A DNA stretch of 64,000 nt, taken from positions 1 to 64,000 of the IMG/VR virus record IMGVR_UViG_3300035682_001186; one strand, 5' to 3'. Below, piece by piece: positions 10,596-46,167 of the stretch (its first letter is position 1; every line of letters starts with the position of its first letter). A program made the position numbers and the translations under genes. Origin of the DNA: a virus. Below the pieces are notes generated by a model. That model was given only the letters and a program-made list of their open reading frames with translations. It did not search any database and was not told where the DNA came from.

Positions 10596-11348
10596 CTAGT
10601 TCATGTTTGTAAATTTAGGAGTCATGAAAACCCATGTCATGGTACTAGGTCTAGACTCACAACATAGTAACATTTTATCACTATCACATAAATCAAAAAG
10701 AATGTCAATATAAGGATTTTTAGCACTTTGAGATATAGGATAAACATCATGAGTATCTTTAAATCTTTCTATAATTAAATCTGTAGTCCCAGATATATTA
10801 CAATCATGACTTTCTACAATAACTGTAGATTTAATTAACTCTGGAATCAAATCAAAATCTAATAAAACTCGCTCATGACCTTCTACATCCATTATAATAA
10901 AAGGTCGTTCGCTTTTTTCTAAATAACTACGTATATTTTCAACAGAACAATCTGTATTAAATTGTACATTGTTTATATTATTTTTATTGGCATTTTCTCT
11001 ACAAATAGAGATTGCCGTAGAGTTAATATCAAATAATACACATAATGTATTAGGAAGATTTCTTGCTATTCCCAATCCATAATATCCTTCCGCACACCCA
11101 ATATTGAGAACAACATCAAAATTTTTAACTTTTGTTAACTGATCAATAACAGGATATAATTCATTTTCATAAATTCCTAATAACTTACCAGCCGTATCAC
11201 CATCACCCCAACTAAATTTACGAACAATAGACATTCCAGTAAAGGGACCTTGATAAACTTTACCATTAGTTCTTTCGTAAATAATATCTAACAACTCAGT
11301 CTTACGTTGCCAACCCCATTGAATATAATTGTTTAATGCTTCGCTCAT
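10596..11348 (-). CDS. SAM-dependent methyltransferase (FkbM-like)
   Basis: VLNIGCAEGYY motif I, IMDVEGHE, IVESH; likely start ATG 11348 (ATGA overlap). Confidence 0.8.
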   Translation of the reverse strand: MSEALNNYIQWGWQRKTELLDIIYERTNGKVYQGPFTGMSIVRKFSWGDGDTAGKLLGIYENELYPVIDQLTKVKNFDVVLNIGCAEGYYGLGIARNLPNTLCVLFDINSTAISICRENANKNNINNVQFNTDCSVENIRSYLEKSERPFIIMDVEGHERVLLDFDLIPELIKSTVIVESHDCNISGTTDLIIERFKDTHDVYPISQSAKNPYIDILFDLCDSDKMLLCCESRPSTMTWVFMTPKFTNMN

Positions 11349-12226
11349 TGTACTAACTCCACCCAATATTTAATTACATTAGACCAATCATATAGTTTGG
11401 CATGTTTTTGTGTTTCCAGACATTTTTTACGATATTCTTCTGGATTATCTTTATAATATGTTAATAATTGTTCTGTTTCATTTAAGAAATGTTTTTCATC
11501 TATTGATACTGTATGACCAGTATTACCTGATTTAGATAACCATATTCCCACTGGTGTACTAATTACTAATTTACCAGCAGCACTGGCTTCTAATGCTGGT
11601 AAACCTGCTCCCTCTTCTGTACTAGCAATAATTACAGCATCAACTGTTTTATAATAACCTTGCATAGTTACATAATTGTTATGATATGTTACCGCTGGTT
11701 TAAGATCAAGATTAGTTCTTTGTGAAACTTCTTCAATTAACCAATAACGCTTGATATCTTTATGAATAGCATTATCACTAATAGTTCCGGAATAACCAAT
11801 AGTTTTTAATTCTATACTTGGCTCACTAACAAATGATTCATAGTTAATACCAATTGGAACTACCATTGGAACTCTATCAATATTAAGTAATATACTTTGT
11901 TCAAGTAACCAATCACTAACTACACCATAATTATGTAAACGTTTTCTATTATCTGGAGAAAATATATTTAAATGATGTAAGTCACGAACTGCATGTGCTA
12001 CTACTATACATTTTTCTGGGACAATACCAAATTTGTCAATCAATAAAGAAATACCATAAGGATTAGCAACAAAGTAATCAATATTGTCGCTTAATTCCTG
12101 AATTTCTTGTTTATTATAATTTATATTCCATGATAGAACAGTAGCGTTGACTTCATGTTCAAATAGATACTTAGTTAATTCATAATGAATTACACCGAAA
12201 GCCCATTCAGGCTCGGTGTAAAACAC
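11345..12226 (-). CDS. GT-B (GT4-like) glycosyltransferase; start ambiguous at A9 tract
   Basis: STEEGAGLPALEASAAGKLVISTPVG (EX7E); YDW C-terminal helix. Confidence 0.85.
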   Translation of the reverse strand: MFYTEPEWAFGVIHYELTKYLFEHEVNATVLSWNINYNKQEIQELSDNIDYFVANPYGISLLIDKFGIVPEKCIVVAHAVRDLHHLNIFSPDNRKRLHNYGVVSDWLLEQSILLNIDRVPMVVPIGINYESFVSEPSIELKTIGYSGTISDNAIHKDIKRYWLIEEVSQRTNLDLKPAVTYHNNYVTMQGYYKTVDAVIIASTEEGAGLPALEASAAGKLVISTPVGIWLSKSGNTGHTVSIDEKHFLNETEQLLTYYKDNPEEYRKKCLETQKHAKLYDWSNVIKYWVELVQ

Positions 12227-13386
12227 TATTCTTTTTTTTTACTTTCATCTACTCTGAGATGTTCAAGATGTGTAGGATATGCTTTGTATAACCAATCAAG
12301 ATTTTCTCTTTCTGGATGATCTTGATACCAACCTTTTCCTTCATGAACATCTAATACCATTTGAAAATATTCTTCATACATTGGTGCAACTTTATCTAGT
12401 GTAAAGTTCTCGGCATAATCACGACAATTACGTGGATCAATTTTATCAATGTTTTTGGCTGCCCAAACAAATTGATCAAATGTACGACAACGATATCCAG
12501 TTACACCATGAATATTGTTTTCAACAAATGAACCCCAATCACATGTGATTGTTGGTGTTCCAGACATAAGTAATTCAACTTGAACTCCACCAAACGGTTC
12601 TATATATTGACTAGCAATAAAAGCACCTTTGGCATTAGACATTAAATCTTTACGTTTTTCAACGTCAGCATATCCAACAAATTCTACATGTGGCGGGAAT
12701 GTACGACCCTCAGGATTTTGACCCGCAATAATCAATTTAGCACCAATTTCACCTGCTACTTGAACTGCAATATCAACACCTTTGCCACTATATACTCGAC
12801 CTAAGAATAAGAAGTAATCTTGTTTCTTTTCTTTAAATTCAAAGTCATCTGGATCAAAGTAATTAGGTATAACTACATCATACCAATCTTGCTTACATGT
12901 ACCAACTGCATCAAGACCATAATAGGCATGATAGATAGCATAACTTTCAAAAATCTTCCAACGTGCCCAATGACCGCCTGCATATCCAATACCTGGTTCT
13001 ACACAAATCAAATCTGGATGAGCATCACATACTGGTCTTGTACCAGAACCCCAAAATGGTAAAATAAAATCATTTGGTTGTTTACGTTTACCCACTTCTT
13101 CAATGGCATTTTTAAAGAATGTTTGATAAGCATGATCACCCATATCATACGTGAAGAAGTTTGTTCTCCAATCATAATCACCATAAGCGATTTTAAAATC
13201 TTCATTAGTTAGTACTGACACATGTTCAGTACATATTAAATCACTATCTTCATGACCATAGTGAATAACTGTATGACCACGTTCAGTCATCATTTTACCA
13301 AACTTAACTACTTTTTGTGTATAGGCACAAGCGTTAAATTCTTTACTACTTACCGTGTGCGGTAATCCTAAGATATGAAAGCGCAT
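12226..13386 (-). CDS. GT4 glycosyltransferase
   Basis: [28 protein letters not shown] (EX7E). Confidence 0.9.
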
Positions 13387-14190
13387 TTATTTTAGTCCCA
13401 TTTTTTTACGAATTTGTGTACCACTAATACTAGTAATGTTTTCATCAAAATATTCTTCACCACTAGTATATCCAACACCACGACCCCAACCAATATGTAC
13501 AATATTTGGAACAACTTGTATTTCATATTGACCCTGATATAATGGATCTAAATCTTTACGAATAAAGTTTTTAACTTGAGTAACTGCAAATGGATTACTA
13601 TCATTCCAACCCTGTACATCACGAATTTGAATTACTACTTGACCAGATTTTTCTAACAATCTTTCAAATAAGGCACGATGACCTTCATGCCATGGTTGCC
13701 AACGACCTAACATTTGTACTGTTTCTTTTTTCCAATCAAATACTGGTCTACGTTGATTATTTAAAATTTTCAAAGCAATATATTCACACCATTTGTTGGC
13801 ATCTTGTTCAGTAACTCTAAAATCATAAATTTCAGGTTGAATAAAAACTTTGTTAGTATCTTCAAACCGACCTTGTTCAATAGTATCTACCCAAATAGTC
13901 CAATCAGCTTTAAAGTTATTACGCATTTCTACTAATGGTGCAACGAAATCACAAATAACATAATCGGCAGTTGACTTTTCAGCCAATTCTGCCATACGTA
14001 AACTTTGACGAATACGACCTGTTTCAGTGAAATCCCAATCGTTAAACTTTTTTCTAACATCATCAGCATTAAACCATTCTACAGTAATGCCCATGCCTTC
14101 ATATTTAATATCCTGAAGATAATTCTTGAGTGATATTGCCAATGTAGTTTTACCTGCACCAGGCAATCCCATAATTAATATCTTTTTCAT
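13387..14190 (-). CDS. APS kinase (CysC-like) fused to HIGH-type nucleotidyltransferase domain
   Basis: GLPGAGKTT, NADDVRK, DFVAP in N-half; GRWQPWHEGH and SISGTQIRK in C-half. Confidence 0.8.
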   Translation of the reverse strand: MKKILIMGLPGAGKTTLAISLKNYLQDIKYEGMGITVEWFNADDVRKKFNDWDFTETGRIRQSLRMAELAEKSTADYVICDFVAPLVEMRNNFKADWTIWVDTIEQGRFEDTNKVFIQPEIYDFRVTEQDANKWCEYIALKILNNQRRPVFDWKKETVQMLGRWQPWHEGHRALFERLLEKSGQVVIQIRDVQGWNDSNPFAVTQVKNFIRKDLDPLYQGQYEIQVVPNIVHIGWGRGVGYTSGEEYFDENITSISGTQIRKKMGLK

Positions 14191-14204: not shown

Positions 14205-14426
14205 TTATTCTGATGGTTGATCTGTTTGTTTTGCGGCGTCAATAGCGGTCAATTGTTGATTAGTTTGATCAACAATAACTTGTCTTAATGGCCAGACACC
14301 AGTTTCAGTTGGTAATTTACCAAGTGCATTAACAACTGCATTAATTTGTTCAAAATTCAATACTAATTGAATAATAACTGGGTCTGGTTGTTGTGATACT
14401 TCTGGTTGTTGTGTTTGTTCTGTCAT
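14205..14426 (-). CDS. Small helical hypothetical protein
   Basis: 73 aa, AGGA SD, same strand as operon. Confidence 0.7.
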   Translation of the reverse strand: MTEQTQQPEVSQQPDPVIIQLVLNFEQINAVVNALGKLPTETGVWPLRQVIVDQTNQQLTAIDAAKQTDQPSE

Positions 14427-14435: not shown

Positions 14436-15335
14436 TTAAAGTTGTTTGTTTAATCTAGGTAACGATTTTGTTACAGTTGATTGTTGTCTGACGATATTAT
14501 TTATATCGCTTGAATTGATCCAATTTAATTGTTTACGTAAATCATCAAACCCATCCTTCCAAAAAGTAGATGATGAATATTGATGCCATAAATCATTTGG
14601 TAAAATTGGTCTACGTTGTTTAAATTCTACACGCTTTCTGACTTTATGTAATCCTTCAATCTTGACACCAACATCAAATTCATCATATGAATCTTCTACA
14701 TTATTAAAATCATGTTCAAACCATGATTCTCCAAGAAAATTATAAATCTTCTTCATAACTATTAATGGATTTTTAACCAAATCATCATATTCAACATAAC
14801 AAATTTGATCACGTTCATTACAAAATAATGATTGTTTAACATTTGCTAATGGCCCAGCAACATATCCAGTAAAATTAGGTAAATTACCCATTAACATATT
14901 AGTTCGTTCATATACAGATAAATTCGGTTGATGATGATATAATGCTTTAACTGTATATGGATTCTTAGCATTCAATTGTTCAAAACTATCTAAAATCCAT
15001 GGTATTTCTCTAATACATATAATCATTTTAAAATCTGGATATAAATCTTTTAATAATGATGTGGCTCCAGACCAACCACGATTCGTATTAAAACAAACTT
15101 CATTACTTTCATTATAAAATGTATCAAATATATTTCTAATAATTTCTTTACGTTTTTCAATTGTAATAGTAGTATCTATTCCAACAGATGTATTAGTAGA
15201 ATCTATAATTGCAGTTGCATATCCTTGTATTACATCACTGATACCAGCAGTAAATCTAGGATTTTGTTTTAAAATTGCACTTAATAGTGTTGTTCCACTA
15301 CGAGGCAATCCAGATATGAAATTATATTTTCTCAT
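14436..15335 (-). CDS. Sulfotransferase
   Basis: ISGLPRSGTTLL 5'-PSB loop; IICIRE...S 3'-PB; VEYDDLV...P...MKKIYNFLG. Confidence 0.9.
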   Translation of the reverse strand: MRKYNFISGLPRSGTTLLSAILKQNPRFTAGISDVIQGYATAIIDSTNTSVGIDTTITIEKRKEIIRNIFDTFYNESNEVCFNTNRGWSGATSLLKDLYPDFKMIICIREIPWILDSFEQLNAKNPYTVKALYHHQPNLSVYERTNMLMGNLPNFTGYVAGPLANVKQSLFCNERDQICYVEYDDLVKNPLIVMKKIYNFLGESWFEHDFNNVEDSYDEFDVGVKIEGLHKVRKRVEFKQRRPILPNDLWHQYSSSTFWKDGFDDLRKQLNWINSSDINNIVRQQSTVTKSLPRLNKQL

Positions 15336-17029
15336 TATTTACTAATTAGTTTTCCAATTTCTGGCAAATACAAATAATTAATATCACTATTCAGAATAGT
15401 TACAAAAGCATCAACTAAACTTTCTACTAATGGTTGACCAGCTAAATTAAAACTTGTATTCATTACCATTGGAATTTGTGTTCTATTATAAAATGCTTCA
15501 ATCAAACGATAGTAATGTAAATTTTGTGCTTCAGTAACAGTTTGAACACGACATGTATTATCTACATGACATACGGCAGGAATTTCATTTACTTTATCTG
15601 GCCAAACATTAACTGCATACATCATAAATGGACTTGATTTCATTCCAGCCATATCAAACCATGTTGAAGCATGTTCTTCCATAACACTACCAGCAAATGG
15701 TCTAAACCATTCTCTACGTTTAACTTGATTAACAAAATCTTTACCATCTACTCTACGTGGATCAAATAATATTGAACGATTACCTAATGCTCTTGGTCCA
15801 GCTTCCGCGGCCCCTTGAAATAAAGCAACAATATTACCATCATCAATCAATTGTGCTACAGTATCATATGTTACATCTGATACTTTAAGATTTGGTACTT
15901 GTTGTAATAAATTATCTAACTGATCATAGTTTGGATGTACACCAAGATATACACTAGTTAACTCTCTTAATTGTACTTCATTTGAGTGATTATGCCAAGC
16001 ATATTTGGCTAAACCAATAGCAGTTCCACCATCATGTGCAATTGGATCAATATAGAAATTAATATCGGGAAAATGTTTAACATACTTATAATTGGCCACA
16101 CAGTTTAAACCAAATCCACCACTAATAATAATATTACGTTCACCAGTAATATCAATTGCCTTTTCAATAAGAGCAATCATTTGTTCTTCAGTTTGTCTTT
16201 GAATCTTATATGCCAAATTCTTATCAATATCACGACATAATGAAAAATCATTATGCCATTCTTTTGGATCATTAAATCGTTTTAAGTATGGATTATGATT
16301 CTCGTCAATATGTGCACCAGCAGGATATCTAGGAATCAATAAGTTCTTATTACCTTTTCCATTAATAAAGAAATCTGGAATATCTACATCTTCTGTACCA
16401 TATGGACTTAGACCCATAGTTTTACCAGCTTCAATAAATCCAAAACCAAGATAATCTGATACGGCCTCATAGGCTTTAGTAATGGTTACAGTATTATCAA
16501 ACTCTTGTATACCATTATCATAGTACATGGCATTACCATCGCTATAACGCTTGTATACAGCGTTAAACTCATGTGGATATGAACAGTAGTAAATTGATTC
16601 AGTTTCGTATCCAGATGCAATTGGACCATTTTCTCCAATTTGTTCTTGATGTACTGAACCAGCACCATCTACAATTACGGCTGCAGCAGTATCAAAACCA
16701 CTACTATAAAAACTGGCACTAGCATGACCCAAATGATGTAAATGTCCAAGATTTGTTACTTTAACATTTGGACAACTTTTTCTAACCAATGCTGTATATG
16801 GATCTTCTCCAGTCCATGGTAATTGTGGTAATTGTGAATTAGTACCACCAATAATTAACTCATCAACTACATGATTATTCAATACATGAACAATAGCCTT
16901 AAATGGATTACCATCATATTTACTTCTAGATAGTCGTTCTTCTTCTGTATAGTATACTAATTCACCATCAACTACTAATGCCGCTGATCCATTATGTCCT
17001 GGATTAATTGCTAAAATTGTATATCCCAT
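15335..17029 (-). CDS. O-carbamoyltransferase (CmcH/NodU/TobZ family)
   Basis: GHNGSAAL, EEERLSRSK, HHLGHA, VDGAG, GKTMGLSPYG, GGFGLNCVAN, GPRALGNRS, KRREWFRPFA, NTSFN. Confidence 0.95.
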   Translation of the reverse strand: MGYTILAINPGHNGSAALVVDGELVYYTEEERLSRSKYDGNPFKAIVHVLNNHVVDELIIGGTNSQLPQLPWTGEDPYTALVRKSCPNVKVTNLGHLHHLGHASASFYSSGFDTAAAVIVDGAGSVHQEQIGENGPIASGYETESIYYCSYPHEFNAVYKRYSDGNAMYYDNGIQEFDNTVTITKAYEAVSDYLGFGFIEAGKTMGLSPYGTEDVDIPDFFINGKGNKNLLIPRYPAGAHIDENHNPYLKRFNDPKEWHNDFSLCRDIDKNLAYKIQRQTEEQMIALIEKAIDITGERNIIISGGFGLNCVANYKYVKHFPDINFYIDPIAHDGGTAIGLAKYAWHNHSNEVQLRELTSVYLGVHPNYDQLDNLLQQVPNLKVSDVTYDTVAQLIDDGNIVALFQGAAEAGPRALGNRSILFDPRRVDGKDFVNQVKRREWFRPFAGSVMEEHASTWFDMAGMKSSPFMMYAVNVWPDKVNEIPAVCHVDNTCRVQTVTEAQNLHYYRLIEAFYNRTQIPMVMNTSFNLAGQPLVESLVDAFVTILNSDINYLYLPEIGKLISK

Positions 17030-17961
17030 TATCGTACCTTTTTCTCAATATCTGCAACAATAGTATTAAACATATCGTCTAGTTCTTTTGTTGTAAAATT
17101 AATTGTTCCTTCATTTAATCTATTACTTAAAGTGGCATCTAATCCGGCAATACGTATTGGTGTATATTTTCTAACTTGTTGTGTTTCAATGATTTTAAAA
17201 TAATCTGGATAACTAGTATTGATTGGAAATGTACTACCAAAAATTACAGTACCTGGAGTTCCAACTGCACGAGCCATATGTTGACCTACACTATCACATC
17301 CAATAAAATAATCGGCTTCTTGAACCAATGCACCCCATTGTCTAAGATCACATGTATATTTTTGTGATACTGTATCTTGTTTCAATTGAAAATCTGGTTC
17401 ACCAAAGAAAATAGTATTATATCTCATGGCAATTTTCTTAACAAGATAGAGATAATCTTTCTGACTTAAACTACGTGATTCTTCATCAAATACACCTTGA
17501 CGATTATCTATTTTGGCACCGCGACCAAATGGTTGAAAGATTACTGTTTTTTGTTTTTTCTGTGCAGCTTTCAAATCTTCAAGTGTATTCTTTGCTACCA
17601 TAACTTCTTGTTGATTAAATTTAAGAACTGGTATACCTAAATCACTATGATCTTTAGTATTATTAATTTCTCTATCAAATCCTTCTACTAAACTAATCTC
17701 TTGTCTAAAATAAGCTGGACAACGATATGGTTCTGGTGTAATAATTTGATCTGCATTTTTAATTACATTGTCAAATACACCTTTAGTATCAATTCCATAT
17801 GTTCTGTCTTGTAGTTCTGGAATACCCCAATATAAGAAATCCCATGCGGCTACCATAACTGCCCAATCAACATCTGGATTTAATTTACCAAATTTAATAA
17901 GTGCTGGAATTGCTGCAATTGCACGACCAGCACCACCATCAATCCAAAATATCTTTTTCAT
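17029..17961 (-). CDS. GT9-like (heptosyltransferase-like) glycosyltransferase
   Basis: DGGAGRAIAAIPAL N-terminus; FIGCDSVGQHMARAVGTPGTVIFG. Confidence 0.75.
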   Translation of the reverse strand: MKKIFWIDGGAGRAIAAIPALIKFGKLNPDVDWAVMVAAWDFLYWGIPELQDRTYGIDTKGVFDNVIKNADQIITPEPYRCPAYFRQEISLVEGFDREINNTKDHSDLGIPVLKFNQQEVMVAKNTLEDLKAAQKKQKTVIFQPFGRGAKIDNRQGVFDEESRSLSQKDYLYLVKKIAMRYNTIFFGEPDFQLKQDTVSQKYTCDLRQWGALVQEADYFIGCDSVGQHMARAVGTPGTVIFGSTFPINTSYPDYFKIIETQQVRKYTPIRIAGLDATLSNRLNEGTINFTTKELDDMFNTIVADIEKKVR

Positions 17962-18024: not shown

Positions 18025-19416
18025 TTATTTGTACCAAAACCAAACATTAGATTGTGTAAATCTGATCTCATTAGTAATATTATTCTTTTGTCTAAACTCA
18101 TTAACTGCTTGATTTACTGCTGGTAAATTCCAATCATGACCAGCAAATATACCACCTGTTTTGACTTTATCCCAATAATTATCTAAATCTCTAACTACTG
18201 CTGAATAACTATGATCACCATCAATAAAGATATAATCTAAACTTTGATCTGGTATATAGGATGCTGCCGTAGTAGCATCCATTTCTAATAATTCTATTTT
18301 ATCCATATATGGATTTAATAGATTCATAGCATATTCACGCCATTGATCTACCATTGATTGTGTAACTGGTCCCCACCAATCCATATATGGTGTCCAACTA
18401 TCAATAGCATATACTTTACTAATCTCTGGTGCCAAATCAAAGAAATGTCTAAGAGTATATCCTTTACAAACACCTAATTCACATCCGATAAGATCAGTAC
18501 CTAACTCTTTGATATATGATAGTAAACCATATGCCGATACGTCTTTCAATGATACTATACTATTTCCATCTCTAACTGATAATAAAGTTTTAATCATTTC
18601 AGTTATTGTACTATTTTCTAATAAATATTTTTGAACAATTGGTTGAGGTTGTCCACCTACTAGTAACAGATTTGATAAATCTGATCCCCATTTTTCAATG
18701 AATCTATCAAAATATATTTTGTCTCTTTGTTTAGTTTCATCAGAGGTTTCACCACTGTCCCATAATGATTTACCTTGAAAATGTAATAGATATGATTGTG
18801 TAGTATATTTGACATTGAATCCTAATTGAATTGCACGAATTCTATAATCAACATCTTCACCACCACCTACACCAAAACTTTCATCAAATAATCCTATCTT
18901 AGAATATATCTCATAAGGTAATCTAAATGCATAAAATGGCATTAATAATCTTTCATAAAATCCAGCTGGATTAAGTTGTTTATGTCGTCTAACAATATCA
19001 CTTAAAGTATAAAAATTATTATCAAATTGATTCATTGACATTGAATTTGTCAATGTTAATTGATCTGTAGTATATTCATGTGTTTGATTACAACTAGATA
19101 TAACAATAACATTATTATGTTGAGTTAATGGTTGTAACCAATTTTCAGTAAAAACAATATCATTGTTTAGAATAATAAGATCCTTACCATCAGATATACT
19201 AATAATATCATTGATATTTTTGGCAAAACTTTTTGGTTGTTCATTGACAATTACAGTAACATTTGGTCTTTGAGTAGTAACTATCTGATCATTATCAATC
19301 AAGTAAAATACATCATTTGATTTTAATTTAGTAAATCTAAAAAAACTTGAAATAGCCAAATCAGTATAATGATCAGACTTTTTTGTAGTGATCATTAAAA
19401 ATACTATTGGTCTCAT
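18025..19416 (-). CDS. GT2 glycosyltransferase fused to class I methyltransferase (Methyltransf_24-like)
   Basis: IDN, LNNDI, GLFDESFG..GEDVDY..R (GT2); ELGVCKG, YIFIDGDHSY, GGIFAGHD (MTase). Confidence 0.9.
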   Translation of the reverse strand: MRPIVFLMITTKKSDHYTDLAISSFFRFTKLKSNDVFYLIDNDQIVTTQRPNVTVIVNEQPKSFAKNINDIISISDGKDLIILNNDIVFTENWLQPLTQHNNVIVISSCNQTHEYTTDQLTLTNSMSMNQFDNNFYTLSDIVRRHKQLNPAGFYERLLMPFYAFRLPYEIYSKIGLFDESFGVGGGEDVDYRIRAIQLGFNVKYTTQSYLLHFQGKSLWDSGETSDETKQRDKIYFDRFIEKWGSDLSNLLLVGGQPQPIVQKYLLENSTITEMIKTLLSVRDGNSIVSLKDVSAYGLLSYIKELGTDLIGCELGVCKGYTLRHFFDLAPEISKVYAIDSWTPYMDWWGPVTQSMVDQWREYAMNLLNPYMDKIELLEMDATTAASYIPDQSLDYIFIDGDHSYSAVVRDLDNYWDKVKTGGIFAGHDWNLPAVNQAVNEFRQKNNITNEIRFTQSNVWFWYK

Positions 19417-20213
19417 GATTTATTCCAAAAATCCAATTTCATATCTGTATATAATTTTGTCAATTCTTTACCAATGACTAATTCTGGTTCTGGACTCACT
19501 CGTTCCATTACTGATCTGACATCATGTAATCCATTTAAACCACCATGATAATCATCATTTTCTAACATTGATTGCATATTATTAATATCAACTTGATATG
19601 TTTCTATACCAATAAATTCACAAATTCTATTCATTGTATATTGACTGTTATTAACAATATCATTATATTCAACAATACACATATCAATGTCAAATGAATT
19701 GTATCCCATTCTGAAACTTGTATATGGATGATTGATATATTTTTCCCACAATATACGACAACGATTTTTGTTATTGATTGCTAAATTATTGTCAATTAAA
19801 TCTTGATCTACAAATGTAATTTTATCTGAATTTTTATTAATCAACAAGATGTAAGATGATAGAATTTCTGGTATACTTCTAGCCGTACAGATGATTTTTG
19901 GTTTTGATCCTAATGCATTAATCATTAACTTACCGTGTCTAGGCCATAATCTATTTTTATCAATGATAACAGGTTTGTCTATATGATGATAGGCACCTGC
20001 GATCATACCATTTATAATATTTCCGTATTGATCTGGATGTCTGTTGACATATGCAGCTGAAATATTATTCCAATTATTGTCAATGATTTCTATTAAATCA
20101 ATAACTGGACTAGTAGTACTGGAATGAATTAATGGATGTTGATTTAATAACGATCCTAGAACAGAACTTCCTGATCTGGGAATTCCGGACATCATAATAA
20201 ATTGTTTATTCAT
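19413..20213 (-). CDS. Sulfotransferase
   Basis: SGIPRSGSSVL, IDKNRLW, IICTARS..EILSS. Confidence 0.88.
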   Translation of the reverse strand: MNKQFIMMSGIPRSGSSVLGSLLNQHPLIHSSTTSPVIDLIEIIDNNWNNISAAYVNRHPDQYGNIINGMIAGAYHHIDKPVIIDKNRLWPRHGKLMINALGSKPKIICTARSIPEILSSYILLINKNSDKITFVDQDLIDNNLAINNKNRCRILWEKYINHPYTSFRMGYNSFDIDMCIVEYNDIVNNSQYTMNRICEFIGIETYQVDINNMQSMLENDDYHGGLNGLHDVRSVMERVSPEPELVIGKELTKLYTDMKLDFWNKS

Positions 20214-20917
20214 AATTGTTTTTTCATTACTGGTAAGATTGGTTTAGTAATGTGAACTGTTTTATTATACCATTTTTCAAAGTCACCTGTAAACTTATAT
20301 GGACCAATATGATTACAAGTGATTTCTTGATCTAACCAAATTTTAAATCCACCATCTTTAAGTTTATTAAATGCATGAATATCTTCACTAATCATTTGAT
20401 CTACACCGGCGACATTTTGAATCACAACATCAAATATCATTCTACGTTCTTTGTCGTCTTTTGGATCCATATATGATTTACTTACGTCCCATAAATGTTG
20501 CATGGCAACTTTACTAAATTTTACAAACCCAGTACCAAGACCATCAACTTCAATTAATTTAGTTATTGGATCTCGTGGTTTCTTCTGTAATTGTCTAACA
20601 ACATATTCTTCTTTATCACCTTTTTTGCGATAGGTACCACCTACTACATCAACTGGATAATCTAATAGTTTGAAAAATTGTTCTGGTTGCCATTCAATGT
20701 CACTATCAATCCAAACTAAATCATCTACATTAGATTCTAAGGCAACATGAATAGTATCATTACGTGCACGTTGAAGTAATGCATCAAAACTTACCCACAT
20801 AGGTATAATTTCAATATCACGTTTAATAGCCATTTTAATAGTGTTCATTAAAGCATTGACATACCAAACATCAATTCTACCATCATAACATGGTGTGCCA
20901 ATCATTACTTTACGCAT
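20210..20917 (-). CDS. GT-A fold glycosyltransferase
   Basis: IGTPCY, QRARN, WIDSDI (DxD), GTGF, SEDI..F, HIG. Confidence 0.82.
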   Translation of the reverse strand: MRKVMIGTPCYDGRIDVWYVNALMNTIKMAIKRDIEIIPMWVSFDALLQRARNDTIHVALESNVDDLVWIDSDIEWQPEQFFKLLDYPVDVVGGTYRKKGDKEEYVVRQLQKKPRDPITKLIEVDGLGTGFVKFSKVAMQHLWDVSKSYMDPKDDKERRMIFDVVIQNVAGVDQMISEDIHAFNKLKDGGFKIWLDQEITCNHIGPYKFTGDFEKWYNKTVHITKPILPVMKKQL

Positions 20918-21801
20918 AATTCACCAAAAAATTTATTCCATTCTGTTTTACGAATATTCCATGAATATCTTAGATTGAACCAATCACTTTGTTCTAATAG
21001 ACCTTCACTGGAATAATTATTTATAGCGTCATTTAGAGCTTGAGAATAATTGTGTGTGAGTTCTTGTCTATCATCACTATAGTCTACATATGTGGCATAG
21101 TCATCACACGTTTCGGATAATGCCCCATAATTAGTTGTTACTATACGACAACCAGCTGCGCCGGCTTCAATAGCGGATAAACAACTTGTTTCTTCATATA
21201 TACTTGGATAGGCTAATATATGAGATTGTTGAAGTGCATATCTAACTGCCTGATTCATACCAAAACCTTTATAGATAACATTTTTCATTGTACGACAACG
21301 ATGAAACAATTGTTCTATATGTGAATTAGTGGCATATCCTTTACCATAGATAATATTGGATGAATAGACTGTCAATTCAACATCCGATCTGTTGAGTAGT
21401 TGAAAAGCGTCTAGTAATACTTCTAATCCACGATTAGGCATACTGGTATAAATCAATCTTATTTTATCAGTTGGTTTATATTTAAATTCAATATCTTCAA
21501 TGGCATTTCTGATAACTAGATTTTTAGATTCATCTACTGGAAATCTATTTTGAAATTGATTTTTTTGCCATTCAGATACATAAACAAATTTATCTATATT
21601 ATCGGTAAAATTTTTATATAACATACCGATAATATTTTGTTGATCGTATGATAGATGTTGCCAAACAATGTTTGCACGATTTGGATCTATTAGACCTTCA
21701 TAACAAACAGAAACAATCAAATTGATCTGATCAGACCAATCTGTTCCTGTATATTTAATTAAGTTATTGTAAAGTAATTCTGTTCCGCCGATAGGTTTCA
21801 T
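20905..21801 (-). CDS. GT4-like glycosyltransferase
   Basis: GGTE, IYTSMPNRGL, YPSIYEETSCLSAIEAGAAG (EX7E). Confidence 0.88.
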   Translation of the reverse strand: MKPIGGTELLYNNLIKYTGTDWSDQINLIVSVCYEGLIDPNRANIVWQHLSYDQQNIIGMLYKNFTDNIDKFVYVSEWQKNQFQNRFPVDESKNLVIRNAIEDIEFKYKPTDKIRLIYTSMPNRGLEVLLDAFQLLNRSDVELTVYSSNIIYGKGYATNSHIEQLFHRCRTMKNVIYKGFGMNQAVRYALQQSHILAYPSIYEETSCLSAIEAGAAGCRIVTTNYGALSETCDDYATYVDYSDDRQELTHNYSQALNDAINNYSSEGLLEQSDWFNLRYSWNIRKTEWNKFFGELCVK

Positions 21802-21873: not shown

Positions 21874-22113
21874 CTATGAGGCGGGCGGATTTATAGGTTC
21901 ATCAGTATCCAAAATTCCATTCAATTTCCACAGTTCTGTATGTTCAAAAATTTGATCTACTGGATACGCTTGTACTGCTTCCCAAATAATTGAGGTTCCA
22001 TCATATGGAGTTCCAATAATCAGATTATTTTCTTCATCTGTATCTGCATTCAATCCAACTGCAGTATGTTCAGGGTTGGCCCAAAACATTGAATGTATTT
22101 GTTTAATTTTCAT
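21874..22113 (-). CDS. Small protein, possibly tail-fibre assembly chaperone
   Basis: Likely start MKIKQIH at 22113 after AAGGA; W.NPEHTA motif; follows adhesin-like gene. Confidence 0.55.
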   Translation of the reverse strand: MKIKQIHSMFWANPEHTAVGLNADTDEENNLIIGTPYDGTSIIWEAVQAYPVDQIFEHTELWKLNGILDTDEPINPPAS

Positions 22114-22126: not shown

Positions 22127-24319
22127 TCAAGAGGGTGATCTAACAATATTTGCACCAGATCCCAAAATAAAAAATTGAAATCCGTTGTAATATGAATATA
22201 TAGGATATTGAGATGATCCAAAAGCTGTAGTGAAGTTAGGTCTTAAAACCCATGTAACTGCGTCTGTTGATGTAGCGCACGTGCCAAGTAATCCGCTAGC
22301 AATAAAAAAAGATCCAGTCCAACCAATTGTGGTTATGTTTTGTGTAGTTACCGCTGCAAGACCAGGCCGCGCTGTCCAAGAAATTCCATCAATTGACGAA
22401 ACACAACTACCTTCGGAACCGACTACCACTATCAGAGAACTGTTCGTGCTTACAGCAATAGAGTTCGGGGTCATTGTTGACGATGAGTAGGCTGCGTTGA
22501 ATGCAGTAGACCGATTTGTCCAAGTAATACCATCAGGTGATGTACTTAACGCTCTGCTAGATGAACTTAGTCCATTAGTAAGAATAAATAAGCCTAATGT
22601 GGGACTCCATGCTAATGCATGCCCGTTGGCAAAGTTTGCTTGGAAACTAGGAAATCCAGGAGATGAGAATGTCCAAGTAATACCATTGGTTGAACGAACG
22701 ACTCTAGGGCTGGAGCCGCGCGATTCGCCAACTAAAAATGTTGTTCCATTCCACACCAAATTAGTAGTAGATGACGAGAGGAAACTGGTAACGGAAGTAA
22801 AACTGTTTGAACGAGTCCATGTAATTCCATCAGGAGAATAACAAGCAAAACAAGTTTCGCCTGATCCCTCCAGACCAGTTGCAACATAATTTATTCCATT
22901 ATAATTAATAGATTTAAGACTTGCCAAAGAAGTGGTGTTGGTTACAGCAATTGCTGCTAAACCAGGTTGTGAAGTCCATGTACTTCCATTGTTTGTTGAT
23001 GTGGCACAAGTACCATTATTTCCAACAACAACTGTCAATCCCGTCGATGAATTTCTTATAATACCAGATACGGTCATGGCTAAATTTCCAAGTGACCCAA
23101 TTGGAAATGTGGTCCCATCTGTTGATCTATAGTATAGTCCGATAGAACCAGTATATGATATCTGACTTGATGATCTAGAAAGTTGTGCTGGTGACTGAGT
23201 AGTAGAAAAAGTTACTCTGGTTGTCCAATTAACTAAATCTGTTGATGTTGCAATTCGCTGTTGCGAAACAGCTACGTAAGTTGATCCCAATTTTAATATA
23301 TCAAACTGTCCCCCAATAGCACTAGTAGACATTTTTGTATAATTGATTCCATCAGATGTGTAAACAGTTGGGTATCCAGGTGTTCTGCAAAAGGTTATAT
23401 TGTCATATGTTATTGAAGCTGGACCACTTGGGGTCCCAAAGTCGGCTGTTCCATAAGCAGTAGCACATCCAGACCTATACGCCCAAGTAATACCGTCATC
23501 AGATGTAATTGCTATCATTTGATAAAAACTACCAGAACCGTTTGAAGAGTAGCCAAAGCTTATAAAACGACTTCCATTCCAAACACATCCCCAACCGCCA
23601 ATCTTAGTTCCACCATTATTTGGAGCTAAAGCAACTTGTGCAGCATATGACGCTGATGAACTTGTCCACGTAATACCATCAGTGGAATACGCTGCAGCGC
23701 CGCCATATGCAACAACACACCAACGGGTTAAGCTAGAAGAATATGCCATCTGTATATTGTTTGGTCCGAACGCGCCAAATACTGCTGCCAAAGTGCCTGA
23801 GGTCCATGTTACACCATTATTTGAAGAATAGAAATATAATGGTGTTAAAGGTGATGTAATAACCCATCTACCATTAGCAAAGTAAAGTCGTTGTTGCAAG
23901 GTGCGGGCGAGTAAACTGTTAATATTAGGTAATTCATTTAGATTACTTGAAACCGTATTCCAATTAACTCCATCCGATGATGAACGAATAGTCCAATTTG
24001 GTGCTGAAAAACTCAAAGCTAAAAATATAGATCCATTCCAAGCCGTATTATTAATATTTGATGTAACATCTGATACTGTGAAGTTTGTTGAAAAATTAGT
24101 TAGATTTGCAAAAGTTTGCCCAAGAATACCGGCATTAGTACCATAAAAATTAGAGATACTAATTGCGCCAGAGCTTGGTACTGCGCCATTAGTTCCAGAT
24201 ATGCCAGTAGCTACTAAACCTCCTCCGGCATAGTATTCGCTTAAACTGATTGGGTTAGTTCCACCAAATTCAGTTTGTATATCATTTAATGATAATGCAC
24301 CAGTAGTTGGTAATGTCAC
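22127..24319 (-). CDS. Fibre-tip adhesin-like protein with Asp-box beta-propeller repeats
   Basis: MTLPTTGALSLNDIQTEFGG...SISNFYG N-terminus; many S.DG.TW repeats. Confidence 0.7.
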   Translation of the reverse strand: MTLPTTGALSLNDIQTEFGGTNPISLSEYYAGGGLVATGISGTNGAVPSSGAISISNFYGTNAGILGQTFANLTNFSTNFTVSDVTSNINNTAWNGSIFLALSFSAPNWTIRSSSDGVNWNTVSSNLNELPNINSLLARTLQQRLYFANGRWVITSPLTPLYFYSSNNGVTWTSGTLAAVFGAFGPNNIQMAYSSSLTRWCVVAYGGAAAYSTDGITWTSSSASYAAQVALAPNNGGTKIGGWGCVWNGSRFISFGYSSNGSGSFYQMIAITSDDGITWAYRSGCATAYGTADFGTPSGPASITYDNITFCRTPGYPTVYTSDGINYTKMSTSAIGGQFDILKLGSTYVAVSQQRIATSTDLVNWTTRVTFSTTQSPAQLSRSSSQISYTGSIGLYYRSTDGTTFPIGSLGNLAMTVSGIIRNSSTGLTVVVGNNGTCATSTNNGSTWTSQPGLAAIAVTNTTSLASLKSINYNGINYVATGLEGSGETCFACYSPDGITWTRSNSFTSVTSFLSSSTTNLVWNGTTFLVGESRGSSPRVVRSTNGITWTFSSPGFPSFQANFANGHALAWSPTLGLFILTNGLSSSSRALSTSPDGITWTNRSTAFNAAYSSSTMTPNSIAVSTNSSLIVVVGSEGSCVSSIDGISWTARPGLAAVTTQNITTIGWTGSFFIASGLLGTCATSTDAVTWVLRPNFTTAFGSSQYPIYSYYNGFQFFILGSGANIVRSPS

Positions 24320-24346
24320 GCTTCTGTATCCTTATCTAATTAGAAT

Positions 24347-24946
24347 TTATTTCAGAAATTTGCACTTCAAATTCTTTAATAAATTCATTATTAAACCAAT
24401 CATAGTAGTACTTTTAACATTTTTACTCTTAAGTTCATCAATTTCTGTCTTGAGTTCAACAATTGATGCAAATGACAATGCTACTAATTTTTCATAATCA
24501 ACTGCTAATGTACCATCTTCACGAGTACGAACGGCTTGTGGAAACACTGACTGTACATCTTGTGCTATAACACCAAAGTCTGACTTTTGAACAAAATAAC
24601 CGTCCTCACCTCCGCGTTGTGCAACATAATCATCAGTCCAGTCAAATGTTTTACCACCAATCGCTGATACTTTATTAAGAGCATCGGGAATATCTTGAAT
24701 GTTCTCTTTAAATTTACGATCTGAAGAGTAAAAAGCAATTATATTATTAGTAGAACGAATCTCTCCAGTGGTCTGGACCACATTGTTAATATTCATCAAA
24801 ACTTGTGATGAAGTCACAGTGGTGCCGCCCACAGCCACTTGCTTGTACAATGTATTTGTACTGGCATCAAACCATTCATCACCCAGCTGTTGACTAACAG
24901 GCTGGGTGTTTGCAGTACGATTTACAATATACGGTCTGCTGCTCAT
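24347..24946 (-). CDS. Short fibre protein with C-terminal intramolecular chaperone (peptidase S74)
   Basis: YSSDRKFKENI, GVIAQDV, VDYEKLVALSFASIVEL coiled coil. Confidence 0.85.
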   Translation of the reverse strand: MSSRPYIVNRTANTQPVSQQLGDEWFDASTNTLYKQVAVGGTTVTSSQVLMNINNVVQTTGEIRSTNNIIAFYSSDRKFKENIQDIPDALNKVSAIGGKTFDWTDDYVAQRGGEDGYFVQKSDFGVIAQDVQSVFPQAVRTREDGTLAVDYEKLVALSFASIVELKTEIDELKSKNVKSTTMIGLIMNLLKNLKCKFLK

Positions 24947-24958
24947 TGTTCTGTATCC

Positions 24959-27838: not shown

Positions 27839-27840
27839 TT

Positions 27841-28535: not shown

Positions 28536-28573
28536 TATTTATCATATGTATTTATCATATGTATTTATCATAT
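28536..28573 (-). repeat. Three tandem 13-bp units each carrying the late promoter GATAAATA
   Basis: TATTTATCATATG, TATTTATCATATG, TATTTATCATAT on + strand. Confidence 0.85.
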
Positions 28574-30546: not shown

Positions 30547-31735
30547 TATATTCCATACCTTCCACGAAGAGCATTAAAGTTTTGTGAAACTTCAGTAGCA
30601 GTTAATGCCGTGTTATAAAATTTTGTAGTGGCTATTTTAGAATCTGAATATACTCCGCCACGTTGTCCTATAGTCACTACTTGTGTAGTATTGGTCACGT
30701 TAACTGTTGATTCTATAGAACCAATTAATACTCCATTTCTATAAAAACTCAACGTAGTTCCATTGTATGTTGTGCAGTAACATTGCCAGTTATTGAAAAA
30801 AACAGCATCAGTAAGTGTTGTGCCAACGCTGTTTTGTGTACCAGTTCCAAATCTTTCAGTTGCAACTAAATTAGATCCGGCTGCAACTCCGACTTTGGTA
30901 TAATATAAATTATATCCGTCGCGACCAGTACCAGTATTAGATTCTCTGTTGATGAAACCAGGATAATTGGAGCTGGTATCTGTTCTTGGATACACCCAAA
31001 CTTCAAAGCTATATGCGGATCTATTTAAAAATTGTAATAAACTAGAATTTGGTAAGTTTACACTGGCATTAGTTCCGTTAAATGACAAGTTTCCTTGATT
31101 TGAACCATCATATAATGGATTGTTAGAAAAAGTTCCAGTCAAACCATTGGAAGTTAAATCTCTCCAAAGATTGACATTGGCAGTTGCAACAGATCCAGTG
31201 GTTGTTGTCAATTGAGTGGCAGAAAAACCTGGCTCAATTTGTAGTCCCCAAAAATCTAATACATAATCTCTTGCACCGTCACTTAATAAATCTACAAAAG
31301 ATTTTGCAACAGCGGTAGATACAGCCGAAGATTGTACTCTAACCCATTCTCCTGTTATAAGACTGGAAGTATAATCTGCATTTGGAGTTCCATCTGCTAG
31401 ATCAAAGTTAGTTACACCAATTGATCCTGATACTTTTCTAACATAAAAACTCACAGTCCAGTTACTGGTCCCATTGGGTGTAAATGACGGTAATAAAACT
31501 CTTAATAGACTGTTGCCACCAGATGTACACGTTATTCTAACTGCGGTTGCAGTACCATCTGGCGCCACAATTCCTGTTGTCAATGTTGCATTAGTTGGAA
31601 AGTAGTTTGTCCAAGTAATAGCATTATAGTTACTATAGGATACATAGTTAATTCCACCGTAACTTTTTATATTAGCCGCATCTAAATAAAGAACTAAACC
31701 ATTAGTTACTATTTTAGGATTATAAGCTACTGCCA

Positions 31736-31736
<1 letters not shown>
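30546..31736 (-). CDS. LamG-like lectin protein with inserted module
   Basis: TNGLVLYLDAAN..SY; WGLQIE insert; NFNALRGRYGI end. Confidence 0.8.
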
Positions 31737-42490
<10,754 letters not shown>

Positions 42491-42586
42491 CTTCGTTTCC
42501 TTTTGGGTACTAGGCTATCATGTTTTAAATATGATTTATCTCTGTATTTATCAGTATGTTATAATTAAATTATTGACATTTTTAAT

Positions 42587-42663: not shown

Positions 42664-45600
42664 TTATTTTATCTTTCTTATTTCATCAATTTGTTTTTGT
42701 TGTTCCTTAACTGCTTCAATTAAGATAGCAATTAATGGCAAATACGAAACTGATAATCCATTTTCATTTTTTGATACCAATTCTGGTAAAATTTTAGCAA
42801 CTTCTTGAGCAATTACTCCATAAGATTTCTTACCCCATTCTTTCCAATTAAAAGAAACTCCAGTAATTTGATTCAAAATAGTTAACGGACTAACAATATT
42901 TTTAATATTTTCTTTCAATGTTCCATCGCTAGTAGAGTTGACTTCTACAGCGTTTAGTTGACCAGTACTAGGATTAAATGTTAATTTACTACTACTTACA
43001 TATATCGTAGCTAAGCTACCAGTAAAAATATTTGAAAGAGCAGGATAAAATGTATTATTATCAACAGTATCAGTAATTATTGATACCCCAGTACCAGTCG
43101 CTCCAGTTAATCCAGTAGCACCAGTTGACCCAATACTACCAACACCACCAGATAATCCAGTGGCACCTGTAGCGCCAGTAAATCCAGTTGATCCATCAAA
43201 TCCAGTAGAACCGTCAAATCCAGTAGCACCCGTACTTCCTATAAATCCAGTAGCCCCCTGTAATCCAGTAGCTCCCTGTAATCCAGTAACACCAGTAGCA
43301 CCTGTTGATCCAGTAAATCCAGTTGATCCATCAAAACCAGTAGCGCCGTCAAATCCAGTTGATCCAGTAAATCCGGTAGCTCCATCAAAACCAGTAGCAC
43401 CAGTAGATCCAATATCACCTTGAACTCCAGTGGCACCGGTAGATCCGTCTAATCCAGTAGATCCTGTGGCTCCAGTAAATCCAGTAGCACCTATGTCGCC
43501 CTGAACTCCAGTAGCACCAGTGGCTCCATCTAATCCAGTAGCACCAATATCACCCTGTAATCCAGTAGCACCAGTAGATCCGTCTAATCCGGTAGCACCT
43601 GTGGCTCCATCTAATCCAGTAGCGCCAGTGGCTCCGTCAAAACCAGTGGCACCTATATCACCCTGAACTCCAGTAGCACCAATATCACCCTGTAATCCAG
43701 TAGCACCAGTGGCTCCGTCAAATCCAGTAGCACCAATATCACCCTGTAATCCAGTAGCACCAGTGGCTCCGTCAAATCCAATTGGTCCAGTGGCCCCATC
43801 AAATCCAGTAGCACCTATGTCACCTTGAATTCCAGTAGCTCCAGTGGCTCCGTCAAATCCGGTAGCACCTATGTCTCCTTGAATTCCAGTAGCGCCAGTT
43901 GATCCATCTAATCCAGTAGCACCAGTAGCGCCATCAAATCCAGTGGCACCTATGTCGCCCTGTAATCCAGTAGCACCTGTGGCTCCGTCAAAACCAGTTG
44001 CCCCAATATCACCTTGAATTCCGGTTGCGCCAGTGGCTCCATCAAAACCAGTAGCGCCAGTGGCACCATCTAATCCAGTAGCACCAGTGGCTCCATCAAA
44101 ACCAGTAGCACCTATATCACCTTGAACTCCAGTTGCGCCAGTTGATCCATCTAGTCCCGTGGCTCCAGTAGAACCAATAAATCCAGTAGCACCTATGTCA
44201 CCTTGAACGCCAGTTGCTCCTGTGGCGCCTGTATATCCAGTAGCACCTGTATATCCAGTTGGACCCACAATAGTTCCAACATTGACCCAAAGTGTACCAT
44301 CATAAACCCATAAATTACCAGTAGCTTGATCTATAACTCCATTTCCAAGTACTGCAGATGGAAATGCAGCATTAAGTGTTGTTTGTGGATTATTAGGAGG
44401 ATCAACGTTTACATTTGGTACTGATCCTATTATGGAAACTGACGTACCTGCTACTCCAGTAGCACCAATATCACCTTGAATTCCAGTGGCACCAGTGGCA
44501 CCGTAACCAGTAGCACCTGTGGCTCCAGTTGATCCATCTAGTCCTGTTGCGCCAGTGGATCCTTCAAAACCAGTAGATCCAGTGGCTCCGCTTCCTGTAG
44601 CACCGATGAATCCAGTGGCTCCGATAAATCCAGTGGCTCCATCTAATCCAGTAGCGCCAGTAAATCCAGTAGCACCTGTACTTCCAGTGGCTCCATCTAA
44701 TCCAGTGGCACCCGTAGAACCAGTAAATCCAGTGGCTCCGTCAAATCCAGTAGCACCTGTACTACCAGTAGCACCTGTAAATCCAGTACTTCCTGTAAAT
44801 CCGGTACTTCCGGTAAATCCAGTACTTCCGGTAAATCCAGTTGATCCAGTAGCACCTGTGGCTCCAGTAGCACCTCTGAATCCAGTTGCACCAGTTGATC
44901 CAGCAGTACCACCACCTCCAGCACCCCAATATAAATTACCTAATCCGTCAGTACTGACTACTAGTCCACTAGCACCACCAGTAATAACTACATTCCCAAT
45001 ATCTCCTAAATTGGCACGAGTATATACTACCAATTGATTTGCCGTAGCAATATTACTACTAGAAATATTTGATGTAACATTACTAGAATCAATATTAGTA
45101 ATGTTTAATGTACTAGTCTCAACATCAAATATAAAATTACTACTACCATCTAATCCGCTTGGTATACTTAAATCAGTCCAACTAGTTCCATTTACACCAC
45201 TGATAATTACGCCGTCTGTTCCAACTATATAATATTCACCACTACCATATATACTATCAATTAAATTACTAGTTGTTCCAGTACTACTAGTAGACCATGA
45301 TGTTGCACCATTGTTACTAGTGATTTGAATTCCATTATCGCCAGCTGATACCAATGTAGGTATAGTTGATACAGTTGCCAACGTAATTGTATTAAGATTT
45401 TCAACAGTTCCACTAATTGATGATGTCCATGTTATACCATCAGAACTGACAATTACTGTACCATTATTTCCAGTTGCAATATAATTGTCACCATCAAATA
45501 CCACGCTATTTAAATTATCAACAACTCCACCATCTTGGATAATCCAATCTATTGCGTCTTCACTTAATAATATTGTACCAGCATTACCAACTACAACATA

Positions 45601-46167
45601 TATACCATTGTCTACATCATAAGCAATACCACGTAAATTTTCTAATACTCCAGTAGCCTGTAAAGTCCAAGTAATAGCATTTAAACTAGTTAATATTGTT
45701 CCATTTTCACCAACCGCAACATATAATCCAGTAATATCAGTATAATATACTCGTAATAAATTTTCTGTTGTTCCGCTTGTTTGTACTGTCCATGTAGTGG
45801 CAATATTACTACTTGTGATAATAGTACCATTATCTCCAACTGCAATAAATCCTAATGGTGTTGGAGTTACTGAATTTATTGGTTGATTAACTGGACTAGT
45901 TTGATTACTGTAATTTATTCCATCTGTACTGTAAAAATATCGTAATGGTGTACCAAATATTACCCATGTACCGCTATTATAAGCAATTGTATCTAGATTA
46001 TTTGTGGCCGCAAATTGAACTGCGCCTGGTGGTGGAGCCGCAGTTCCACCGGATCCTAAACTATATAGTTGAGTAAAGTTTTCATTAATCTTTTCAAACG
46101 CAAGTCTTAGAGGATCGCCATTACCATCGTTTGACGAAGCTCCAATGTTAATAATTTGTTGTGCCAT
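42664..46167 (-). CDS. Collagen-like fibre: gp9/gp10-type anchor, beta-propeller, collagen, S74 chaperone
   Basis: IINIG...[23 protein letters not shown]; AVG.NGTI.TS repeats; GAT/GFD/GDI triplets; [10 protein letters not shown]...GVIAQEV...IEAVKEQQ. Confidence 0.88.
43090..44910. repeat. Collagen-coding tandem repeats
   Basis: Gly-X-Y triplet-coding repeats interrupted by a short domain at ~44270-44450. Confidence 0.9.

Follow-up and report, generated by a model that had tools for sequence, protein, structure and literature searches.

We analysed the first 64,000 nucleotides (the window) of a 109,270-bp viral contig, IMG/VR record IMGVR_UViG_3300035682_001186. On its minus strand, from 21801 to 10596, lies a block of 11 enzyme open reading frames (ORFs), downstream of fibre genes and co-oriented with them. 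The block probably specifies a cytoplasmic pathway by which the phage builds glycans on its own fibre proteins and decorates them, and it appears to be a fusion of two modules: module A (13386-10596), whose relatives keep company with Gly-X-Thr collagens, and module B (21801-13387), whose relatives follow fibres built from a 17-residue repeat. The initial annotation of this DNA had likewise proposed a modified O-glycan on the phage's fibres; co-occurrence across genomes favours that proposal, while the promoters and the link of sulfation and carbamoylation to collagen that came with it did not hold up, and the source of activated sulfate is doubtful.

Enzymes and fibre repeats of the window

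The fibre genes encode two kinds of repeat. The giant fibre protein (3,584 aa; 31736..42490, minus strand) is Gly-X-Thr collagen interrupted by three modules of a 17-residue repeat. When runs of at least five triplets are counted, its Gly-X-Y stretches add up to 1,956 residues (652 triplets); 550 of these triplets carry Thr at Y, and only 2 Pro stand at X. The other fibre protein (1,167 aa; 42664..46167, minus strand) has an N-terminal domain, 549 Gly-X-Y residues (183 triplets, 113 of them with Thr at Y) and a C-terminal Peptidase_S74 intramolecular chaperone. By sequence both belong to the Pfam Collagen family (PF01391; E = 1e-243 for the giant fibre and 1e-77 for the other). Their almost Pro-free, Thr-at-Y composition is as first described; the length had been put at some 2600 residues and comes to about 2,500. 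The 17-residue repeat (NTTGsNNxAIG, or NTTG..NNxAIG) fills residues 1-371, 1913-2202 and 2784-3300 of the giant fibre, and a Thr/Ser pair is kept in each copy. No Pfam family recognises it; on visual impression it resembles YadA-head/Hep_Hag repeats. Thus one fibre unites both repeat types, as the phage unites both enzyme modules.

All 11 enzyme ORFs are present, and Pfam matches (counted above the gathering cut-off) and fold models agree with the families originally claimed: six glycosyltransferase (GT) domains, two sulfotransferases, a carbamoyltransferase and two methyltransferase domains. All lie on the minus strand. Module B opens with a GT4-family enzyme of 298 aa (GT4_298; 20905..21801; Pfam Glycos_transf_1/Glyco_trans_1_4), first gene of what we call the GT9 cassette. 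The 235-aa product of the next ORF (20210..20917) has no valid Pfam match; its predicted structure (pLDDT 84) clearly has the GT-A fold, with STIV A197, human COLGALT1, LH3 and Mimivirus R699 as top matches, and D71-x-D73 is conserved in 11 homologs. A 266-aa sulfotransferase (19413..20213; Sulfotransfer_3 43.4 bits, Sulfotransfer_1 36.9 bits) is followed by a 463-aa two-domain enzyme (18025..19416) in which a marginal GT2-like match (23.5 bits against a cut-off of 23.3) precedes a C-terminal Methyltransf_24/TylF-like sugar O-methyltransferase domain.

The heptosyltransferase-like GT9_310 (310 aa; 17029..17961) also has a marginal Pfam match (GT9, 23.9 bits over 46 aligned residues; cut-off 22); its GT9 fold is confirmed at the level of an AlphaFold model (pLDDT 78.6), whose best matches in the PDB are WaaF, a Veillonella GT9 and WaaC, then TibC. 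Next comes a TobZ/NodU-type O-carbamoyltransferase (564 aa; 15335..17029), with Carbam_trans_N (YrdC/Kae1-like, 78.1 bits) and Carbam_trans_C (199.4 bits) above the family cut-offs and PDB sequence matches to TobZ, novobiocin carbamoyltransferase and GdmN (E = 1e-46 to 1e-55). The second sulfotransferase (299 aa; 14436..15335) scores 57.0 bits for Sulfotransfer_3. Both sulfotransferases exceed that family's cut-off of 27, with the N-terminal 5'-phosphosulfate-binding (PSB) loop included, and their sole PDB sequence similarity is to the PSB loop of tyrosylprotein sulfotransferases. A small conserved ORF of 73 aa (14205..14426), with 48-76% identical copies at loci L412-L414, travels with the cassette.

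Module B ends with a 267-aa kinase-nucleotidyltransferase fusion (13387..14190) that joins an APS-kinase-like P-loop kinase to a NadM/NMNAT-like domain (motifs GRWQPWHEGH and ISGTQIR). The APS_kinase match (38.4 bits) is above cut-off and covers residues 4-95 only; the C-terminal domain matches NadM/archaeal NMNAT, not ATP sulfurylase. Homologs 69-82% identical occur in at least 598 viral stretches and are very common in this phage group. Module A consists of the GT4-family enzyme GT4_386 (386 aa; 12226..13386), which its co-occurrence with collagens makes a candidate collagen O-glycosyltransferase, a second GT4-family enzyme, GT4_293 (293 aa; 11345..12226), its conserved partner directly 3', and MT256 (256 aa; 10596..11366; Pfam Methyltransf_31), a class I S-adenosylmethionine (SAM) methyltransferase often found near the GT4 pair in relatives. 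Both GT4 enzymes match Glycos_transf_1/Glyco_trans_1_4.

In NCBIfam, all GTs, sulfotransferases and methyltransferases of the block gave sub-threshold, family-level matches only. The 11 proteins contain no predicted membrane segment, nor, by Pfam, any flippase, polymerase, ligase, initiating phosphoglycosyl transferase or ABC exporter family, so whatever they modify must be accessible in the cytoplasm. An undecaprenyl phosphate-dependent O-antigen or capsule assembly locus was rejected because the required transferase, Wzx, Wzy or ABC exporter, and ligase are not among the 11.

Co-occurrence of each module with a fibre repeat

The association of module A with collagen was assessed in 80 viral loci anchored on GT4_386 homologs (71-92% identical) and, as a control, 80 loci anchored on a homolog of the gp15-like gene that neighbours the block. 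A collagen ORF, defined as one with at least 15 Gly-X-Y triplets, lay within 10 kb in 34 GT4_386 loci versus 2 control loci (Fisher p = 3e-10; p = 5.5e-4 for loci of at least 18 kb; both values overstate the support, as the GT4_386 loci share ancestry and are not independent). The collagen ORF abuts the GT4_386 homolog, on its 5' or 3' side, in about 15 of the 80 loci, often less than 100 nt away, and Thr dominates at Y in these collagens. In one genome (G049) the homolog (73% identical) lies 75 nt 3' of a Gly-X-Thr collagen gene (980 aa) and is the final member of a fibre operon with two more collagen genes and LamG genes. GT4_386 is itself widespread, with thousands of metagenomic homologs at least 78% identical, many on contigs of 160-350 kb and often fused to methyltransferases.

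The same arrangement is found in a cultured phage. Synechococcus phage S-CAM7 (L411, NC_031927.1 12914-20410) has, between its baseplate and tail-fibre genes, collagen gp014 (204 Gly-X-Y triplets), collagen gp015, GT4 gp016 (77% identical to GT4_386), GT4 gp017 (a GT4_293 homolog) and 2-oxoglutarate-Fe(II) oxygenase gp018. Because an enzyme this similar adjoins collagen genes in a cultured phage, fibre glycosylation is directly testable there. As a separate observation, gp018 has the prolyl 4-hydroxylase-type Pfam domain PF13640 and the S-CAM7 collagens contain Pro; hydroxylation plus glycosylation of that phage's collagen is conceivable from the sequence. Outside viruses, two Acidobacteriota genomes (one a 4.7-Mb contig) carry a 43-44% identical GT4_386 homolog in divergent orientation beside a Gly-X-Thr collagen ORF. 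The association thus spans virus families and bacteria, which makes it the strongest single argument for collagen as the acceptor.

A wider survey used a DNA pattern for eight consecutive Gly-X-Thr triplets, which picked out at least 120 viral stretches; 37 of these records were searched for GT genes. GTs were encoded in 21 (GT1-family in 4, GT2-family in 17). Among 18 examples examined, 13 had the GT gene co-oriented with the collagen ORF and at most 3 kb from it, where about 2.5 would be expected by our own random-placement estimate. Many of these neighbours are proteins of about 355 aa that join a GT2 domain to tetratricopeptide repeats (TPR), the size and architecture of Clostridioides difficile SgtA. 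They are 34-66% identical to one another and are encoded 0-3 kb 3' of Gly-X-Thr collagen tail-fibre genes in small phage genomes (20-58 kb, several complete; loci L233, L235, L238 and L239, and others in G018, G022, G030, G032, G044, G045, G048 and G054). SgtA, a protein of about 358 aa with a GT-A (GT2) domain and C-terminal TPR repeats, is encoded beside BclA3 and adds beta-O-GlcNAc (N-acetylglucosamine) to Thr of the BclA3 GPT repeats in vitro (PMC7157674). Here, as with BclA3 and with BclA of Bacillus anthracis, whose Gly-X-Thr repeats are O-glycosylated on Thr, a GT gene adjoins a collagen-like gene. Unlike in those systems, the collagen-linked enzyme of our block belongs to GT4 (GT-B fold), a phage fibre takes the place of the spore coat as carrier, the repeats are almost Pro-free, and ten further enzymes, including sulfo-, carbamoyl- and methyltransferases, stand beside it. 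An SgtA-type transferase within the block was rejected, none of the 11 proteins having a TPR domain by Pfam.

Module B behaves differently, and the expected co-occurrence of the block with Gly-X-Thr collagen was therefore obtained for module A and not for the sulfo/carbamoyl cassette. The gene set of module B (GT4_298, GT-A, sulfotransferase, GT2 plus TylF-like methyltransferase, GT9-fold, O-carbamoyltransferase, second sulfotransferase and kinase fusion) recurs with small rearrangements in 26 viral contigs, whose GT9 enzymes are 64-93% identical. Fifteen of these contigs have enough upstream DNA, and in 14 of them the cassette lies directly 3' of a giant 17-residue-repeat fibre gene; in one example, 12 nt separate the first GT from the end of a 2,378-aa ORF that has an S74 chaperone. 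These fibres are built from the 17-residue repeat and contain no collagen, so module B tracks the repeat rather than collagen. In the 58 kb of genome G001, module B is present with neither collagen nor the 17-residue repeat; this case is not decisive, since the contig reaches no more than 13 kb upstream of the cassette. As a side observation, Gly-rich (GGxGGx) fibre-like ORFs replace Gly-X-Thr collagen in G001 (L019; about 50056-51957) and in G002 (about 86396-87433).

The pairing of a GT9-fold enzyme with a repetitive, beta-structured, adhesin-like protein that keeps a Ser/Thr in each repeat recalls the autotransporter protein O-heptosyltransferases TibC and Aah (the BAHT family) acting on TibA and AIDA-I. 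Membership of that family was rejected: TIGR04414 has no match in the 109-kb contig (E <= 0.01), WaaF and WaaC outrank TibC by fold, and GT9_310 matches only RfaQ and heptosyltransferase III, weakly, in NCBIfam. Unlike the TibC/Aah systems, the block has no heptose-synthesis genes.

Candidate acceptors and competing readings

From the established enzyme families and folds, fibre repeats, gene order and co-occurrence we infer a pathway, including its acceptor, the residue that bears the sugar, the sugars, the order of steps, the timing and the benefit to the phage, that would run as follows. Module A would most likely start and extend O-glycans on Thr at Y of the Gly-X-Thr collagen, by analogy with SgtA on BclA3 and with BclA glycosylation in B. 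anthracis. Module B would most likely glycosylate the 17-residue-repeat modules, or extend the same glycan, and add methyl, carbamoyl and sulfate groups. The phage may gain stabilisation of the triple helix, shielding from proteases or antibodies, or adhesion. In its fullest form, a sulfated, carbamoylated, O-methylated glycan coat on micrometre-scale collagen fibres, laid down by two separable modules each matched to one repeat type, the proposal is tentative and somewhat less likely to be right than wrong.

Late timing would come by read-through. The window has 17 copies of the motif GATAAATA, which we take from the structural genes as the late-promoter consensus of this phage, where 6.0 would be expected (0 of 100 shuffles reach 17); most stand about 20-25 nt 5' of structural-gene starts. 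Copies precede the 1,167-aa fibre gene (46188-46195) and the 3,584-aa fibre gene (42545-42552), and three in tandem with 13 nt spacing lie on the minus strand at 28536-28569, 5' of a 225-aa gene. The enzyme block contains none, and the nearest upstream on the coding strand is this triple; late expression of the block is thus plausible by read-through only, in a predicted transcription unit that opens at the triple and runs through the fibre-like genes into the block. The two motifs that had been put forward as late promoters, ATTAAATA (21807-21814) and TGTAAATA (17993-18000), are present but do not match the phage's own consensus, and ATTAAATA stands just 5 nt before the ATG of the GT4_298 gene. 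Scans for sigma-70-type promoters (79 sites versus 93.9 in shuffles, hence fewer) and for terminators (8 versus 4.9) were uninformative.

Several results weigh against fibre glycosylation. In addition to the shared ancestry of the GT4_386 loci, 46 of the 80 have no collagen within the locus DNA, many of these loci being short, and 16 of the 37 Gly-X-Thr collagen records have neither a GT1 nor a GT2 gene. In relatives, no collagen adjoins module B. The block's carbamoyltransferase is 47-50% identical to those of cyanophages P-SSM2 and S-CAM3, which lie among tail-fibre genes with heptose-synthesis genes and without collagen. An obligatory link between collagen and GTs is ruled out by these two loci together with the 16 records. 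No consensus late promoter lies within the block itself. Its enzyme families serve lipopolysaccharide (LPS), capsule and natural-product pathways as well, and peripheral LPS GTs likewise have no membrane segments. Finally, homologs of the 267-aa fusion lie beside sulfotransferases in just 3 of 80 loci and mostly beside a radical-SAM/carbamoyltransferase cluster. This scarcity and the NadM-like second domain make it doubtful that the fusion supplies 3'-phosphoadenosine 5'-phosphosulfate (PAPS); of the APS-kinase fusion originally claimed, the kinase match stands and a role in sulfate supply is uncertain. NadR-like salvage of nicotinamide adenine dinucleotide (NAD), or another nucleotide activation, fits the data as well as PAPS synthesis does.

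The main rival is that the enzymes remodel the host surface, modifying LPS, O-antigen or capsule, for example to block superinfection. GT4, heptosyltransferase-like GT9, GT2, sulfotransferase and carbamoyltransferase genes are typical of surface-polysaccharide loci, and the cyanophage carbamoyltransferases do sit with heptose-synthesis genes. In marine cyanomyoviruses and pelagimyophages, the GT clusters of the tail-fibre region (the 'host recognition cluster') have been assigned to modification of the host surface or of DNA (PMC7029224, PMC12801897). Our block resembles them in being GT-rich and embedded in a tail-fibre hypervariable region; against that published assignment, its co-occurrences point to the fibres as acceptor. 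Host-surface remodelling would leave unexplained both the adjacency of GT4_386 to collagen in jumbo phages, T4-like cyanophages and Acidobacteriota and the constant place of module B after one type of repeat fibre. The block, moreover, lacks flippase, polymerase, ligase and initiating transferase, and it is placed and oriented with virion genes. We regard this rival as unlikely, though the likeliest of the alternatives.

Less likely again is that the product is a free or nucleotide-activated small glycoconjugate, or that the acceptor is another virion protein (a capsid decoration or the sheath), the linkage to fibres reflecting a shared hypervariable insertion site. The spot beside the gp15-like gene is indeed plastic, with 80 lineage relatives lacking the block there; a second, lineage-wide cluster of radical SAM enzymes, carbamoyltransferase and kinase fusion occurs without collagen; and relatives of TobZ and NodU act on small molecules. 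Yet one insertion site cannot explain an association of GT4_386 with collagen across families and domains of life, and no enzyme that would form a scaffold, such as a NodC-like synthase, polyketide synthase or non-ribosomal peptide synthetase, is encoded in the block. The chemistry does resemble Nod-factor tailoring by NodU, NodH, NodPQ and NodS (O-carbamoylation, sulfation, perhaps with a dedicated supply of activated sulfate, and methylation). The likeness lies in the chemistry and does not extend to the system: Nod-factor biosynthesis was rejected as NodC, NodB and NodA are absent from the block and from the scanned ORFs of the 109-kb contig, and the sulfotransferases miss every NCBIfam equivalog (NoeE 19.5 bits against a cut-off of 500). 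Hypermodification of DNA, with glycosylated, carbamoylated or otherwise decorated bases that would counter restriction, is very improbable. Phage GTs that hypermodify DNA with glycans are known (work cited in PMC12619734), and the contig is 29% of the genome, so that base-modification genes could lie elsewhere. No hydroxymethylase, deoxynucleoside monophosphate kinase or other base-precursor gene was found in or beside the block, however, which lies in the structural region and is linked to fibre repeats. We know of no role on DNA for sulfotransferases or TylF-like sugar methyltransferases, which also counts against this alternative.

Glycosylation of its own fibres by this phage would have precedents in other viruses. 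In mycobacteriophages, phage-encoded GTs act in the cytoplasm on proteins of the virion (Freeman et al. 2023, cited in PMC12619734), as is proposed here; there one or two GTs act on the C-termini of capsid and tail-tube subunits, whereas in this phage the candidate acceptors are giant collagen and 17-residue-repeat fibres and the enzymes number 11. Giant viruses are the other published case of virus-encoded virion glycosylation (both cases are cited in PMC12619734 and PMC9614988), and like this phage they (Mimivirus L230 and R699, PBCV-1 A64R) have glycosylation machinery alongside collagen-like proteins. The GT-A model of 20210-20917 matches COLGALT1, LH3, R699 and A64R, at a fold level generic to GT-A. 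Giant-virus collagens are glycosylated on hydroxylysine; our window has no lysyl hydroxylase, Lys is rare in its repeats, and the host is bacterial. A literature search found no paper linking phage collagen fibres with phage GTs, and none on a phage sulfotransferase acting on virions.

If fibre glycosylation is correct, a post-translational layer would be added to host recognition, virion stability and evasion of grazing or immunity, and the stability of long, Pro-poor Gly-X-Thr triple helices would be explained. A sulfated product would be, to our knowledge, the first sulfated glycoprotein described on a bacteriophage. GT-rich tail-fibre clusters of marine and lake myoviruses are routinely annotated as auxiliary metabolic genes for host LPS or cell wall (PMC7029224, PMC12801897). 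The co-occurrences argue for a role in the virion itself for at least two such modules, and the interpretation of these clusters in viromes would change accordingly. In the fullest form of the proposal, which is the tentative one, many of the 'LPS genes' of marine and freshwater myoviruses would be virion-glycosylation genes.

Source phage, second cluster and neighbouring genes

The source is an uncultured jumbo phage with a genome of roughly 340-370 kb, and the block lies inside its structural region. CheckV estimates the contig (G+C about 33%) at 29% of the genome, the major capsid protein shares 63-67% identity with its counterparts in Rak2/GAP32/PA5oct-type jumbo myoviruses, and PHROGs calls in the window include sheath, portal, prohead protease, capsid and fibre proteins. 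A 341,863-bp metagenome contig carries identical or nearly identical copies of the block enzymes; megablast of the block against isolated phages gave no match. A 3.6-kb contig (L439, CAZYEM010000351.1) in a metagenome-assembled genome (MAG) labelled 'uncultured Bacteroides sp.' encodes proteins 98-100% identical to the window genes at 8157-13386. The contig is almost certainly a fragment of this phage that was sorted into a bacterial MAG, and it does not count as evidence for the host.

The block is not typical of its lineage. All 80 relatives picked via the gp15-like gene (50-68% identical) lack the block beside that gene, and one carries a GT4_386 homolog at the site. Neither block nor collagen occurs in a syntenic relative of 157 kb (capsid 83% identical), and two relatives estimated to be 95-100% complete have no Gly-X-Thr collagen, sulfotransferase, GT9 homolog or 17-residue-repeat fibre. 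Lineage genomes without the enzymes are thus also without both repeat types.

The second biosynthetic cluster lies beyond the window (contig 96149-109270; L006:2549-15670), after a 4,170-aa fibre-like protein. It encodes five radical SAM enzymes, of which two have SPASM and one is B12-binding, along with several ORFs that have no annotation and a second carbamoyltransferase, truncated where the contig stops. In contrast to the enzyme block, this cluster is conserved lineage-wide, including in a 367-kb complete relative, and has no collagen. In relatives it occurs with GT-like genes after a giant fibre, usually including a homolog of the 267-aa fusion.

Between the giant fibre gene and the enzyme block are further structural genes, all on the minus strand. 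Three LamG/concanavalin-like proteins of 396, 434 and 225 aa (28568..31736; Pfam Laminin_G_3; phrog_8510, virion structural protein) are probably fibre-associated or receptor-binding. They are followed at 22127..28518 by a 225-aa protein, a 959-aa virion structural protein (phrog_5838), a 199-aa S74-chaperone protein and a 730-aa fibre-like protein, assigned by Pfam and PHROGs, and a small ORF of about 79 aa, read from the sequence, occupies 21874..22112 just before the block.

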